Source: Patescibacteria group bacterium
Lineage (GTDB): Bacteria; Patescibacteriota; Microgenomatia; UBA10105; UBA927
Assembly: GCA_038062895.1 (NCBI GenBank)
Contig: JBBTWJ010000014.1
Coordinates: 4,036-68,035 of the forward strand
Direction: 5' to 3'
Length of the DNA stretch: 64,000 nt
This document shows positions 54,394 through 62,201 of this stretch, piece after piece (within the stretch, counting starts at the first letter, position 1; each line of letters begins with the position of its first letter). A program made the translations under genes and the position numbers. The notes under the pieces were generated by a model. The model ran no database searches and had not been told where the DNA came from. It was given only the letters and a program-made list of their open reading frames with translations.

Positions 54394-54942
54394 ATGCCTG
54401 CCAAATCCATCGCTATCAATCTACTAGGTCAAGAGGACCTCAAGCATACCCCTCAAGGCCGGCTAATCGGTTGGGCGCTAACCTATGGACGGTATATCAT
54501 GATCGGCACGGAAATCGTTGTCCTTCTCGCTTTTATCTCCCGATTTAGTCTGGACCGCAAACTGACGGATCTTAAGGAAGAAATTAACCAAAAGCAAGCT
54601 ATTTTGGAAGCCAATAGCGGTCTTGAGCTTGAAATCAGAAGACTGCAGGATCAATTAGTGAAGACAAAACAAACGATGACCAATCAACAAATTCCACTCA
54701 ATACGCTCACACTCCTTCAGACGCTCTTGCCTACTGATGTCTATGCGGAAAAGCTGGAAGTTGCCTCAGATCGTCTTTCCGTTGATGCGATCGCAGGGAC
54801 GACCCATGGATTTTCCCAATTTCTCACAAATCTTCAAGCGACCAAACAATTTTCCCGTATCGATATCGGGGATATTAAAAAAAACGCGCTTACCGGTATA
54901 GAATTTAAATTCACTGCATTTCTCTCTAATAAATCCAGATGA
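54394..54942 (+). CDS. pilN: type IV pilus assembly protein PilN-like
   Basis: MPAKSIAINLLGQEDL N-terminus (INLL motif), one TM, then a coiled coil. Confidence 0.5.
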   Translation: MPAKSIAINLLGQEDLKHTPQGRLIGWALTYGRYIMIGTEIVVLLAFISRFSLDRKLTDLKEEINQKQAILEANSGLELEIRRLQDQLVKTKQTMTNQQIPLNTLTLLQTLLPTDVYAEKLEVASDRLSVDAIAGTTHGFSQFLTNLQATKQFSRIDIGDIKKNALTGIEFKFTAFLSNKSR

Positions 54943-55025
54943 AAAACCTTTTACCTTTTTTGACTTTCCCGCCTGCAACGCTTTGCGTAGCATTGCGGGC
55001 AGGTGACTTTTGACTTTTTTAAAGT

Positions 55026-55697
55026 ATGCCTTTTAATTACAAAACAGAACTCCATCGTTATAAACGATATTATCAATCTATTGGGGAGGTAGCTATCAAA
55101 CCACAGACGCGGGCATATACAACCGCGATATTTTCATTTTTGGCAATCTCTCTTTTTGGATGGTATGCCATCCGACCTACACTCCAAACTATCCTTTTTC
55201 TCCAAAAAGAAATTGACGACAATAAACTCGTCAACATACAGATGGAAGAAAAAATCGGAAAACTCATCGAGGCCCACGCCACATATCAGAGCGTTCAATC
55301 GGACTTGCCGTATCTCGCCCAGGCACTACCTCCCGCTCCGGAGGTACTCACCGCCATTGGACAAATCCGCAATATCGCCATCATCCGGGGTGCATCCATA
55401 TCTGCTATTACCAGTTCAGGCACACCGCTATTATCCAAAGAAGAAAACGCTCCGAATAAAACTACGACCATCAAATCAAGCCGCAAAGTCAAATCCGTCC
55501 CACTCTCCGTCATCGTCGTCGGGACATTCAATTCTCTCCAGGGAATCATAGAGGATATACTCTCCCTGCGCAGAATCGTCACCATAGAAACGTTGAATTT
55601 TACTCCTAATAGAGAATCAGAACAACAGCTATTGTTTGGAAGCATCCCGCTGAAGCTTGTCATGAAAGTAAACGCGCACTATATTGATACTGACTGA
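55026..55697 (+). CDS. pilO: type IV pilus assembly protein PilO-like
   Basis: N-terminal TM, a coiled coil and a C-terminal alpha/beta domain, placed after the pilN-like gene. Weak. Confidence 0.4.
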   Translation: MPFNYKTELHRYKRYYQSIGEVAIKPQTRAYTTAIFSFLAISLFGWYAIRPTLQTILFLQKEIDDNKLVNIQMEEKIGKLIEAHATYQSVQSDLPYLAQALPPAPEVLTAIGQIRNIAIIRGASISAITSSGTPLLSKEENAPNKTTTIKSSRKVKSVPLSVIVVGTFNSLQGIIEDILSLRRIVTIETLNFTPNRESEQQLLFGSIPLKLVMKVNAHYIDTD

Positions 55698-55699
55698 CC

Positions 55700-55836
55700 T
55701 ATGCCAGGTAGTGAAAATTCGACCGCATCGCGAAGCGATGCTGGATGCCTGGCAGACGAAGCAAGTATTGAAACGTATGAATATCGAATAAGTGATTGAG
55801 CATCAATCATTTGTCGAATTTCTACTACCTGGTATG
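55700..55836 (+). repeat. structured leader element copy 2 (TATGCCAGGTAGTGAAAATTCGACCGCATCGCGAAGCGATGC ... GTCGAATTTCTACTACCTGGTATG)
   Basis: Starts 3 nt after the pilO-like stop. The right arm ends in the ATG of the downstream ORF (55834). Confidence 0.7.
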
Positions 55837-59388: not shown

Positions 59389-59493
59389 CGACAGAAACGT
59401 ATTTTTTATCCCACTTCCTATTGACCTGACTTAGGTTATCTACTACTGTGGATATAGTACCAATTCGCCGTACATCGTTAGGCGTTTCATTCT

Positions 59494-60393
59494 ATGGCAG
59501 ATATTCTTGATTCCGCCCAAGCGCAAATTAACAACGCCGCACAACAAGTGGGTGGTCCACCGGACCCCGCAAATGTTGATCTTGGTGAGTTAGATCTTCC
59601 ATATTCATCACATGCTCATCAAAATAACAACAATCAATCGACAATTTCAAATGACTCCGTTGTTCCCACAGAAACGCCCCCAATGCCCAAATCCCCGCGC
59701 CCCACCGGAGCGGCCGTATCAACACTTCTTTTTCTTTTTGTGACACTCCCTCTCTCTGTTTATTTTATCTCTCAACAACGCGCATTGACGGACCAACGCA
59801 GTAAAGCCGCGTATGTCACAAAAACAAGCGAACTGTATGTTGCCAATCTGAATAAAACGTCATTTTCCGTCATATGGAAAGAAGAAATACCCGCAAAGGG
59901 TTGCGCGGTGGCCAAAAATATCAAAACACAAAAAGAAACAAGGGCTTGCGATGACATCCTCTCGCGTATGCATCTGGTCACCCTCACCAACCTTGATCCG
60001 TACTATTCCTATGCAGTCGCAGGACAAGGCGGAGGAAAAATAAAGCTTCATCCGTTTTTTGGTAATTCCATTATCAGCGGATTATTTGATAAGACAAAGC
60101 CACCTTCCCGTATTGTCCAAGGAACCATTAATCAAGCAAATGGTCAACCCCTTAAGGACGCATTTGTCATCGTCTCGCCGTTTCTTACCGACCGATTCTA
60201 CTTTCCTGTAGCCTCCTACACCGATCAAAACGGAACATATGCCATTGATACGTCACTTATTGACGCCCAAAATCCAAAACCTTACGAATTGATTATCGTA
60301 GAAGTTGTCAATCGGCAGGGACAAACGCTTATCGAGCAAAAAATTCCGAGTCCATCTGGCAATCAAATCGCTACGATTACGTTACTTCAATAA
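59494..60393 (+). CDS. membrane-anchored protein paralogous at its N-terminus to the 57490 gene, with FN3-like and beta-sandwich domains
   Basis: Shares ELDLPYSS and a TM followed by ISQQRALTDQRSKAA with VLDLPYSS ... TSQQRQIADIRNRAA in the 57490 gene. Confidence 0.5.
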   Translation: MADILDSAQAQINNAAQQVGGPPDPANVDLGELDLPYSSHAHQNNNNQSTISNDSVVPTETPPMPKSPRPTGAAVSTLLFLFVTLPLSVYFISQQRALTDQRSKAAYVTKTSELYVANLNKTSFSVIWKEEIPAKGCAVAKNIKTQKETRACDDILSRMHLVTLTNLDPYYSYAVAGQGGGKIKLHPFFGNSIISGLFDKTKPPSRIVQGTINQANGQPLKDAFVIVSPFLTDRFYFPVASYTDQNGTYAIDTSLIDAQNPKPYELIIVEVVNRQGQTLIEQKIPSPSGNQIATITLLQ

Positions 60394-60395
60394 CT

Positions 60396-61529
60396 ATGAA
60401 CACGATAAAAATAATTATCCGCAGCATGGTGCTATGTTTTATAGTAAGCGTAAGTATCGTGATTGCCTTTTCTCCAAAAATTTTTGCCGCGGATAATATG
60501 TGCAATGTCAATCCCGGTTCATGTGATAGTCCGGCAGAATGGGAAGCAGGATGGTATGCAGCGCGCGAGCCGGAGAATCAAAATGCCGCTCCGGCCCAGG
60601 CAGAATATACCCAGCGCAACGAAGGAAATGTCGGAGAAGCCCCACCGGACCGGCCCGTAGAAATTATCCGCCTCGCCGGAGAATCAAACTCCACCAATAG
60701 GAGTGATATTGCAGCAAATGACGCAGCAGCACGAGGTGGTGATGCAGTCAATCCAAGCAAAAGAACAGCAGATGCAATCCAGCTTGATCCGAAGACTCTT
60801 CAACCCATCGGGATAACAACAAGCGGAACGACCGGATCAAGTGGAGGAGCTGCTGCAGCATGTTATGGGATCGGCGGAGGCCAAGTAGAACGGGACTGTC
60901 TGGCCCGGGCTGCAAGCGGCACCTACACATCAGGGGCATGTCGGGGACTCTCCGTCGCCCAATGCGCCGCATTAGGACGGGCTGTATATTGCAATGGATC
61001 ACAAGAAGCAGCAGGAACTTCTCGAGGAGGCGAATTTTTAAGCTGCGGCAAAACATCAACCAACGGATGCGGACAAGTCGATGTGTTTGATGGCAACGAT
61101 ACGCTTATCGGATTTGTCATCGATAAATCCGGATGCGGGGGTCAAACGACGACGACAACCACTCAAAATGCCCCTCCCCGTGATATCACGACGACAATCG
61201 TTACAACGCTTAATCCTACGCCTACTCCCACTCCCGCCCCTGTGTGTGAGACCATCCGCATTTACAACTCCTCCGGCACCGATATCACCGCAAGCCTCAA
61301 AGACGGCAGCAAGAAGCTGGGGATCGGCGAAGAAGTCACCATAGCAACCACAAAAGGAAGTGCAACCAAAGCCCGCTTCCGTATCCAAGGCATTGCAGAC
61401 TGGGCAGAAAATGATCCGTCCAAGACAACGACCACGGAATACCGGTTAACCATACGGATTCCATCAGCCCTCACGCAAACACAAGGAACATTTGAGGTAG
61501 AAGTGTTTGTCAATGGTGTATGGAAATAA
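60396..61529 (+). CDS. Cys-rich secreted protein ending in the same domain X
   Basis: Signal peptide, many Cys and a T-rich linker. The C-terminal 90 aa are nearly identical to those of the 57490 gene. The last about 270 nt are 100% identical. Confidence 0.5.
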   Translation: MNTIKIIIRSMVLCFIVSVSIVIAFSPKIFAADNMCNVNPGSCDSPAEWEAGWYAAREPENQNAAPAQAEYTQRNEGNVGEAPPDRPVEIIRLAGESNSTNRSDIAANDAAARGGDAVNPSKRTADAIQLDPKTLQPIGITTSGTTGSSGGAAAACYGIGGGQVERDCLARAASGTYTSGACRGLSVAQCAALGRAVYCNGSQEAAGTSRGGEFLSCGKTSTNGCGQVDVFDGNDTLIGFVIDKSGCGGQTTTTTTQNAPPRDITTTIVTTLNPTPTPTPAPVCETIRIYNSSGTDITASLKDGSKKLGIGEEVTIATTKGSATKARFRIQGIADWAENDPSKTTTTEYRLTIRIPSALTQTQGTFEVEVFVNGVWK

Positions 61530-62201
61530 ACGTATGCCAGGTAGTGAAAATTCGACCGCATCGCAAAGCGATGCTCACTGCCTGATGCATGATGAGTAAT
61601 CTGGTAGAACATCGATGTGATCGATAAAATTATCTGATCTCTTGTCGAATTTCTACTACCTGGTATGAGATTTTTCAAAAAATACTGGCATTTGATCTTT
61701 GTAAGCATCCTCACGGTCGTTTTGGGGATAGTCACCCTATTGACCACCCAGAAACTCAATCAAACAACGCCCATAGCTCCCAACGTTCCCCAGATCAAAC
61801 CTAAAGCCGTGGAACCTGCCTGCAAACTCACCTTTTCTGTCATACAACCGACGGGAACTCCGACGTCAACGCCAACCTCAACATTGACTCCGGGTCCTAC
61901 GGCCACTCCGGGGCCAACGGCAACCCCTGGCCCTACAGCTACACCCGGGCCAACAGCAACACCCAAACCAACGGCTACTCCAAAACCAACCAAAACGCCC
62001 ACGCCCACGCCCACCATGACAGGAGCACCGACGCCGACGAAGACCCCTACACCGACGTCCACGCCAAGACCTATTGTTGAATCATCTCCTTCTGCCCAAC
62101 CCGTACCAAAAATCCCGGTTGCTGGCGCAGGACCGACGATACTGGGAGCTTCTATTATTGCGGGAGGATTTCTGTTCCTGGTGTTGGGATTATTATTCTA
62201 A
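61261..62201 (+). repeat. 941-bp perfect direct repeat, copy 2
   Basis: See copy 1. Includes leader element copy 4 (61533-61667) and a duplicate of the PT-repeat gene. Confidence 0.9.
61665..62201 (+). CDS. PT-repeat surface protein (identical duplicate of 58852..59388)
   Basis: 100% identical protein in the ORF track. Confidence 0.5.
   Translation: MRFFKKYWHLIFVSILTVVLGIVTLLTTQKLNQTTPIAPNVPQIKPKAVEPACKLTFSVIQPTGTPTSTPTSTLTPGPTATPGPTATPGPTATPGPTATPKPTATPKPTKTPTPTPTMTGAPTPTKTPTPTSTPRPIVESSPSAQPVPKIPVAGAGPTILGASIIAGGFLFLVLGLLF

Follow-up and report, generated by a model that had tools for sequence, protein, structure and literature searches.

The window analysed here is a 64,000-nucleotide stretch of contig JBBTWJ010000014.1 (assembly GCA_038062895.1), which belongs to Candidatus Gottesmanbacteria as judged from its PilO homologues and 64 species-level loci; exact protein matches to it are found in the metagenome-assembled genome (MAG) GCA_964357735.1 from Hainich groundwater well H41. 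Towards its right end, pilN- and pilO-like genes are followed by two units of surface protein genes, A and B, which are unrelated in their variable parts and identical over 941 bp in their 3' modules, i.e. the coding region of a C-terminal domain (domain X), a small element that has the features of a transposable element of the miniature inverted-repeat type (MITE), and a gene for a Pro/Thr-rich (PT) protein. Below, L-numbers (L009, L013, etc.) label the contigs or loci compared, P-numbers (P0127 and P0130) denote representative proteins, and TM stands for a transmembrane segment. The features of the cluster, together with a fourth copy of the element found elsewhere in the window, are as follows.

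54394..54942, + strand: pilN-like gene with the ATG start MPAKSIAINLLG; the longest open reading frame (ORF) begins at TTG 54313
55026..55697, + strand: pilO-like gene (Pfam PilO, 33.7 bits against a cut-off of 22)
55700..55836, + strand: MITE copy 1 (element 55704-55832), with TATG duplications at 55700-55703 and 55833-55836
55834..56028, + strand: conserved gene for a 64-aa membrane protein, with an orthologue immediately 3' of pilO in L009-L013
56084..57424, + strand: gene for an FN3/Big_13 surface protein of 446 aa (Pfam fn3 and Big_13), with a C-terminal VPTSG and hydrophobic tail
57490..58716, + strand: unit A gene, encoding a cytoplasmic LDLPYSS N-terminus, a TM, a variable ectodomain with 19 Cys, a PT linker, and domain X (~58432-58713)
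58448..59388, + strand: exact repeat copy 1, made up of the final 269 nt of the unit A gene, then MITE copy 2 and the PT gene in full
58720..58854, + strand: MITE copy 2 (element 58724-58850), with TATG duplications, the second of which gives the ATG of the PT gene
58852..59388, + strand: PT gene copy 1 (178 aa), with orthologues in L009 (with a PKD-like insert), L013, and L050
59494..60393, + strand: unit B gene 1, encoding an N-terminal module (MADIL..., LDLPYSS, TM, SQQR) fused to an FN3-like ectodomain, with an orthologue in L009
60396..61529, + strand: unit B gene 2, encoding a signal peptide, a region with 12 Cys, a T-rich linker, and domain X (~61245-61526)
61261..62201, + strand: exact repeat copy 2, equal to copy 1 at all 941 positions
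61533..61667, + strand: MITE copy 3 (element 61537-61663), inside repeat copy 2
61665..62201, + strand: PT gene copy 2, identical to copy 1
40629..40759, - strand: MITE copy 4 (element 40633-40755), with TATG as either flank when read on the gene strand

The ORFs described in the original prediction are all present, and its assignment of pilN- and pilO-like genes passes the Pfam thresholds (30 bits against a cut-off of 22.8 for PilN). Orthologues of PilN occur in 64 Gottesmanbacteria loci, and the pilO-like gene has 207 homologues, called PilO by NCBI in Gottesmanbacteria. The gene order common to the locus and its relatives is pilN, pilO, the 64-aa membrane protein, the FN3/Big_13 protein (orthologues in L009, L013, L026, and L050), a Cys-rich domain X protein, and the PT protein, with LytR and TIM genes on the opposite strand. 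The 64-aa protein matches no family in Pfam or NCBIfam and has no similarity to the PT protein. The architecture of the unit A gene recurs in L013 and among those representative proteins that were inspected at the sequence level, and the second gene of unit B has an orthologue in P0130 (73% identity) and another in L009. As had been claimed, the proteins of 57490 and 59494 share an N-terminal module with the LDLPYSS motif, a TM segment, and SQQR (38% identity over 102 aa, E 3e-11), and those of 57490 and 60396 are Cys-rich (19 and 12 Cys, respectively) and have only their last 94 aa, domain X, in common (97% identity). The view of these genes as paralogues encoding surface or membrane proteins is supported. 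The ectodomain of the 59494 protein and the N-terminal FN3 part of the 446-aa protein appear to be distant paralogues (27% over 128 aa, E 2e-6), which points to domain shuffling inside the cluster.

The PT protein, a modular protein in its own right, has an N-terminal TM, one Cys, 40% Pro plus Thr, and a C-terminal IPVAG followed by a hydrophobic tail. In public gene calls (L001 and L007), it is replaced by a 100-aa Gly/Val-rich ORF on the minus strand (58947-59249 and 61760-62062). This call is likely a systematic mis-annotation, as the plus-strand protein has hydrophobic segments at both its N- and C-termini and orthologues in relatives. An exact-sequence look-up of the PT protein returned no record, because the public gene calls take the opposite strand.

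In its extent, the 941-bp identity (941/941 positions) is exactly as originally reported. Repeat copy 1 takes in domain X minus its first ~16 nt, and identity stops dead on both sides, not reaching one base further; the right end coincides with the TAA stop of the PT ORF. The imperfect homology that had been described upstream of the block holds only in part, i.e. for ~7 codons of domain X (CELIKVY versus CETIRIY) and the low-complexity PT linker; the ungapped identity 5' of the block is 47% over the first 60 nt and random (20-35%) beyond. Matches of 100% to the window were found in assemblies of three Hainich samples and three Logan runs. Together, these six assemblies cover the four junctions (A-repeat, repeat-B, B-repeat, and repeat-LytR), and one contig spans both copies. 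Two contigs (L002 and L003) run through copy 1 and the unique middle and end 55 nt into copy 2. Two short unitig-like contigs begin 30 nt inside copy 1; one of them reaches across the entire middle as far as 30 nt into copy 2, and the second ends within the middle. We regard the two-copy arrangement as real, because a strain bubble cannot give an edge from the end of the PT gene to the region upstream of unit B.

Related genomes carry one unit or the other. L013 (PilO 65% identical) has only a gene of the unit A type and a PT gene, and in L009 (PilO 80% identical) unit B alone is present, in the form of orthologues to 59494 and 60396, along with a PT gene; each of the two genomes has a single X-PT module that lacks a MITE at the X-PT junction. 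In the window, both units are present. Exact direct repeats at this locus were also found in three other species, namely in L050 (986 bp at a spacing of 1916 bp), L022 (507 bp at 1415 bp), and L026 (1224 bp at 1241 bp), the last being a fresh tandem duplicate of a whole gene. In L050 and L022, as in the window, identity begins within a few nucleotides of the domain X start, and no relation is seen between the parts upstream of it. Both units of L050 are full ones; their Cys-rich heads differ, and their PT genes are nearly the same. The PT gene is duplicated too in two of the three other species with repeats. Because these three species independently show the same picture, the locus appears to undergo recurrent tandem duplication with gene conversion. 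With regard to the PT genes themselves, in the one at 14781-15833 of L026 the plain PT stretch gives way to a Cys-rich module (DC..GL.CS.G.CRNPSCT) repeated five times, and a PKD-like insert is present in that of L050 as well as in that of L009.

The sequence in front of each PT gene had originally been described as a leader element. It exists in three copies at the locus, the third lying before the 64-aa gene, but it is not a dedicated leader: its features identify it as a non-coding MITE of 123-129 nt, inserted at start codons, whose terminal inverted repeats are 20 bp long and whose target duplication is 4 bp long and usually TATG. The site between pilO and the 64-aa gene is empty in L009, L010, L012, and L013 (stop, 1-6 nt, ATG, with a single TATG) and filled in the window and L011 (TATG[CCAGGTAGTG...CTACTACCTGG]TATG), and the comparison of these empty and filled sites indicates insertion with a 4-bp duplication, the second TATG of copy 1 giving the ATG of the 64-aa gene. 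The 20-nt arm pattern has seven matches in the window versus 0 expected. Copy 4 is placed exactly in the gap from the nusA stop (TAG) to the infB start, so an essential operon tolerates the element, and diverged copies occur at the start codons of pilN, rpsT, and tpiA in other Gottesmanbacteria. The three copies of the locus have ~45 nt of the 5' end and 26 nt of the 3' end in common and differ in the middle. In the arms, positions 1-9 are invariant except for position 3, which covaries as A-T or G-C; positions 10-11 form an invariant asymmetry (G.T plus A.C), and positions 13-20 show compensatory changes among 67 arm pairs. The predicted folds are very stable (copy 1, -58.8 kcal/mol, z -7.3; copy 2, -57.7 kcal/mol, z -8.5), with the element ends pairing in a ~24-bp stem that takes in the downstream ATG. 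The element has no coding capacity for a transposase, and the upstream ATG opens only a short upstream ORF (32 and 21 codons in the window copies). A search against Rfam 15 gave no gathering-score match in the whole window and no match in the elements at E up to 10.

At least 120 loci of the element were found in a metagenome scan; 73 distinct complete copies among the matches listed were analysed (68-355 nt, mode 125-145 nt), and the counts that follow refer to this set. Identical 4-nt direct flanks are present in 45 copies and comprise eight different sequences, TATG occurring 35 times and the others being CTTG, AATG, TGTG, TAAG, TCAG, TCAT, and TTTG. A start codon that opens at least 60 codons abuts 53 of the 73 copies (73%); by a stricter criterion, which adds an in-frame stop within 25 codons upstream when the element is removed, the figure is 46 of 73 (63%), against 11% of all TATG sites. 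Both orientations occur, in a ratio of 40:11, and the genes 3' of the element are unrelated to one another (S20, L19, S19, L23, SecA, MreB, GreA, PilN, TIM, and IF-2). A scan of viral contigs gave 14 unpaired matches, which is about chance by a rough estimate, and nothing relevant on MITEs of candidate phyla radiation (CPR) bacteria or on start-codon MITEs was found in the literature. Three tandem 207-nt copies with TATG between them lie directly 5' of a secA-like start codon in L088 (2609-3237). A minority of copies have inverted flanks (CATR...YATG), e.g. L120 7756-7895 and others in L115, L138, L139, and L157; the inverted flank of the L120 copy is 8 nt (GGGTCATA / TATGACCC), which a simple 4-bp target duplication does not explain. 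A transposase in L120 was considered as the parent and rejected, being of the Mutator/IS256 type, not bounded by the element ends, and unrelated.

The downstream gene stays intact upon insertion because the target duplication recreates its ATG. In the mRNA, the element would fold into a long hairpin whose base places the old upstream context beside the regenerated start codon; the two TATG copies would thereby be set side by side, the original context staying by the upstream ATG, and UAUG is predicted to be able to lengthen the helix on the sense strand via U.G, A-U, U-A, and G.U pairs. Looping out of the element in this way would explain its tolerance before infB and ribosomal protein genes.

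Domain X was found in 108 representative proteins by a full HMMER scan, 22 of them at E below 1e-30, and a word-index protein search gave 4 matches only. It forms the last ~100 residues in nearly all of the 108, ~10 weaker matches being internal or in several stretches. In 42 of the 64 species-level loci, its hidden Markov model (HMM) has a match 2-4 kb downstream of pilO, and 40 of these 42 matches are on the pilO strand. The members read have a conserved cytoplasmic N-terminus (M-A/P-D-I-L...), a TM segment, and then a highly variable Cys-rich region. Ten family members matched no Pfam family, and the locus proteins matched none in NCBIfam. Structure prediction, which had been proposed as a check, yielded an immunoglobulin (Ig)-like sandwich: the predicted local distance difference test score (pLDDT) of the AlphaFold2 model was 61 with 6 sequences and 91.6 with a 51-sequence alignment. 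According to this model, domain X, which is lineage-restricted, is a generic Ig-like beta-sandwich and not a pilin. Domain X opens with a nearly invariant lone Cys, the single Cys of the PT protein stands in ACKLTF, and the Cys counts of the mature Cys-rich proteins are odd (19, and 11 once the signal peptide is removed). The locus defines a conserved pilN/pilO-anchored cluster with an uncharacterised, fast-evolving surface protein family and a new C-terminal Ig-like domain.

In the account that we favour, a unit would consist of a membrane-anchored protein (a hypervariable Cys-rich ectodomain plus C-terminal domain X) and a following gene for a Pro/Thr-rich, stalk-like protein, and the variable end of the cluster would hold one or two such units before LytR on the other strand. 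Units A and B would be old paralogues, each with an X-PT module of its own. The MITE would then have entered the TATG start of one PT gene, and a conversion tract of at least 941 bp would have copied X-MITE-PT between the units, probably from B onto A, ending ~20 nt inside domain X at the limit of homology. The two modules were not born identical, because A and B occur separately elsewhere with their own X-PT. The X-PT junction reads AACGTATG|CAA in L013 versus AACGTATG[element]TATGAGA in the window, and the block was copied after the MITE insertion, since both copies hold the same element, which neither L009 nor L013 has at that junction. The left edge reads CELIKVY in unit A, as in A-type genes, and CETIRIY in unit B, as in B-type genes, and the shared block has B-type residues (ITASLKDGSKKL and IPSALTQTQG), being ~85% identical to the B-type P0130 (residues counted by hand) and 79% identical to the A-type P0127. 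The ~0.9-1 kb direct repeats would ease the loss or gain of a unit by RecA-type recombination, and the existence of A-only, B-only, and A+B genomes can be explained by them; the deletion or amplification through direct repeats that had been envisaged is plausible in view of L013 and L009. The proposal of gene conversion or unequal crossing-over likewise remains the best reading of the sequences, given the A-only and B-only relatives and the perfect duplicates in three species.

We assign a probability of roughly two in three (0.68) to this account as a whole, i.e. that A and B are paralogues homogenised by gene conversion at the variable end of a conserved surface cluster and that the 'leader' is a MITE. 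A number of points weigh against it. Short-read assemblers traverse a collapsed repeat twice, so the perfect identity and the number of exactly two copies rest on assemblies, and all four duplicated loci are short-read MAGs. The conversion from B to A is suggestive only, because the B-type comparators (L009 and P0130) are apparently closer relatives overall than the A-type ones. As for the MITE, no autonomous transposase with matching ends was found in the 1.86 Mb of loci scanned, and the 11% null refers to all TATG sites and not to intergenic TATG sites alone. The start-codon association could be partly survivorship, insertions elsewhere being lethal in compact genomes, and a start codon in a ~24-bp helix could equally repress translation. 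A scan for sigma-70 promoters and terminators gave nothing above the shuffled expectation and did not detect the TTGACC...CTACTGT motif described below.

The alternatives were weighed against the same evidence. The assembly artefact that the original prediction had allowed for, here a single real X-PT module and coexisting strain alleles A and B concatenated by the assembler, would suit the fact that every case comes from short-read metagenome assemblies, a repeat longer than typical insert sizes, and the break of L002 and L003 within copy 2. However, the junction from the PT stop to the region upstream of unit B is present in six independent assemblies from different samples and two assembly pipelines and is an edge that a simple allele bubble lacks, the unique middle segment has repeat sequence on each side, and in L050 each copy has its own junction because the two PT genes diverge over their final ~50 nt; we consider an artefact very improbable. 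A recent segmental duplication, in which a single copy of the 941-bp piece (X tail, MITE, and PT gene) landed 3' of a pre-existing Cys-rich gene that thereby gained its domain X and a new partner gene, would account well for the perfect identity and the razor-sharp boundaries, and L026 shows that fresh tandem duplications arise at this locus. Nevertheless, unit A retains the ~7 first codons of an A-type X (CELIKVY) in frame with the block, and in other genomes the A-type genes invariably bring an X of their own with a PT gene behind it, which indicates that a resident X-PT was overwritten and not newly supplied; the boundary at the X start, seen also in L022 and L050, is more easily explained if homology limits a conversion tract. 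Simple copying and pasting is an unlikely course of events.

The suggestion of a cassette or phase-variation system, in which a dedicated mechanism would switch, delete, or amplify the units as alternative cassettes for expression, draws on the hypervariable ectodomains beside conserved modules, on the A-only, B-only, and A+B genomes, and on the recurrence of the pattern in four species. It was not borne out and has a very low probability: there are no silent, promoterless, or partial cassettes, both units being full ORFs with start codons and the TTGACC...CTACTGT motif upstream, promoters are not bordered by inverted repeats (positions 50000-64000 contain 0 inverted pairs of 30 nt or more), and no recombinase, invertase, or reverse transcriptase was found among the annotated genes within ~10 kb upstream or in the ~8 kb read beyond LytR. 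A diversity-generating retroelement was ruled out, the repeat being 100% identical and a reverse transcriptase being absent among the annotated neighbours. As to the element, its highly stable fold (z -7 to -8.5), which holds the start codon in the stem, its siting at start codons, and its orientation bias of 40:11 could also be expected of a functional, non-transposable cis-regulatory RNA (for translational coupling, RNase III cleavage, or temperature sensing, for example) that has spread together with its genes. This reading is hardly tenable, as relatives hold the same genes without the element, the 4-nt direct duplications are of eight different sequences, it is found in both orientations and in tandem arrays, the genes downstream of it bear no relation to one another (S20, L19, SecA, MreB, TIM, and IF-2), and the interior is not conserved. 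An integron attC site, a retron, a ribozyme, and a riboswitch were rejected because the element has target duplications and a variable interior, because orthologous sites are empty, and because an integrase or reverse transcriptase is lacking. A MITE can have regulatory side-effects, so the MITE and regulatory views overlap.

The more far-reaching proposition is that this is the first described member of a MITE family (known so far from Gottesmanbacteria and, widely, from metagenomes) that actively targets TATG starts and endures ahead of essential genes because its transcript folds aside, and that X and PT are, in addition, kept identical as physical partners. We hold this joint claim only tentatively and would sooner doubt it than accept it. 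The start-codon bias would fit active targeting of start codons by the element, and an intermolecular disulfide between domain X and the PT protein is conceivable from their sequences. If true, the element would be a translationally 'self-silencing' mobile element, the duplicated ATG being used as if uninterrupted, that is also able to tune expression, X-PT pairing would possibly proceed via the single conserved Cys of each partner, and the locus would be a modular display of hypervariable Cys-rich heads.

Regarding expression and anchoring, a motif consisting of TTGACC, a spacer of ~16-21 nt, and CTACTGT(A/G)(A/G)ATA is present at 57427-57470 and 59420-59470 of the window and at 12290-12335 of L009, i.e. 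5' of both MADIL-type genes and of the L009 orthologue, and is a candidate promoter. LPXTG-like C-termini with a hydrophobic tail are present in three proteins, namely IPVSG (49835-50893), VPTSG (56084-57424), and IPVAG (the PT protein, 58852-59388). In a test for sortase substrates, a charged tail was absent in the window proteins and present in orthologues, and no HMM match was obtained. These C-termini may point to sortase-type anchoring, next to the LytR (LCP) gene.

The genes upstream of the cluster include S20, MurJ, GH39, and a cohesin protein, and ten larger ORFs at 24-45 kb are housekeeping genes. A gene for a protein with a P63C domain, a phage-associated domain, adjoins the hrcA-grpE-dnaK-dnaJ operon (44359-45435). 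Past the window end, a few genes on from LytR/TIM/UvrD, L001 (10126-12631) encodes a 1423-aa helicase-nuclease of the UvrD/PD-(D/E)XK type that includes an intein-splicing domain.

CPR bacteria represent a large share of bacterial diversity and live attached to other cells, and their surface biology is almost unknown. Judging from their architecture, the proteins of the cluster would be exposed, fast-evolving surface proteins, possibly involved in host contact or serving as phage targets, and a locus that repeatedly duplicates and homogenises in different species is a candidate for studies of host or phage interaction. For annotation, the MITE parts stop and start codons by ~130 nt and places start codons in strong hairpins; landing on start codons and restoring them would give a transposon an unusual route of persistence in very compact genomes.

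Among known systems, the likeness to the PilN/PilO proteins of type IV pili lies in the adjacent genes for bitopic membrane proteins above the Pfam thresholds and in the N-terminal INLL motif of PilN; the locus differs in that the downstream genes are not pilins. No PilM, ATPase, platform, or pilin gene was found among the neighbours checked. Neither the suggested pilus-tip role nor a resemblance of the small membrane protein and the PT protein to pilins, which had been proposed as a check, is supported: their N-termini (MDNDRDLLLVSVF... and MRFFKKYWHLIF...) lack a class III signal peptide of the G/FTLIE-like kind, and neither protein has a pilin match in Pfam or NCBIfam. The CPR-specific Pam pili, a surface system of Ig-like domains reported also from Microgenomatia (bioRxiv 10.64898/2026.03.03.709456), have an operon context (ATP synthase, CorB, and MFS) unlike that of the present locus (bioRxiv 10.64898/2026.03.03.709456). 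None of the nine locus proteins and the L009 PT orthologue reached the cut-off of an NCBIfam Pam model, and the sole model to appear was PamR, which scored 16.5 bits with the L009 orthologue, its cut-off being 300.

Closer parallels to the duplication are the babA/babB genes of Helicobacter and the streptococcal emm-like clusters, which are tandem or dispersed surface-protein paralogues homogenised by gene conversion. They resemble the present locus in their variable exposed parts, their identical or nearly identical conserved anchoring or C-terminal parts, and their strain-variable copy number. In the present locus, by contrast, the module that is conserved lies at the C-terminus and continues into a second gene (PT) and a MITE, the protein family is without Pfam or NCBIfam assignment, and the host is an uncultured CPR bacterium. 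For the element, the best bacterial comparators among MITEs are the Correia elements of Neisseria and ERIC/RUP, which are likewise non-coding, ~100-150 bp in length, and dispersed in many copies, with long terminal inverted repeats and short target duplications; they, too, are sited in transcribed intergenic regions, and their transcripts form a long hairpin. The window element differs in its 4-bp duplication (mostly TATG) instead of TA, in the regenerated start codon, in the invariant 2-nt asymmetry (G.T plus A.C) mid-arm, and in its hosts, which include Gottesmanbacteria (CPR), and we know of no parent insertion sequence for it. The MIRU of mycobacterial operons and the ribosome binding sites of phage T4 genes 25 and 38, which are split by hairpins, are similar as intergenic insertions or hairpins in operons that preserve downstream translation. 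They overlap stop and start codons, or loop out the sequence between upstream signals and the ATG. Unlike the window element, for which looping-out would be the corresponding route, they have neither the inverted-repeat structure of a transposon nor target duplications. The duplication is in itself a well-known type of event, here affecting an unfamiliar protein family; nothing else at the locus is as novel as the MITE, which, by this reinterpretation of the 'leader', is a new family whose insertions follow an unusual pattern.

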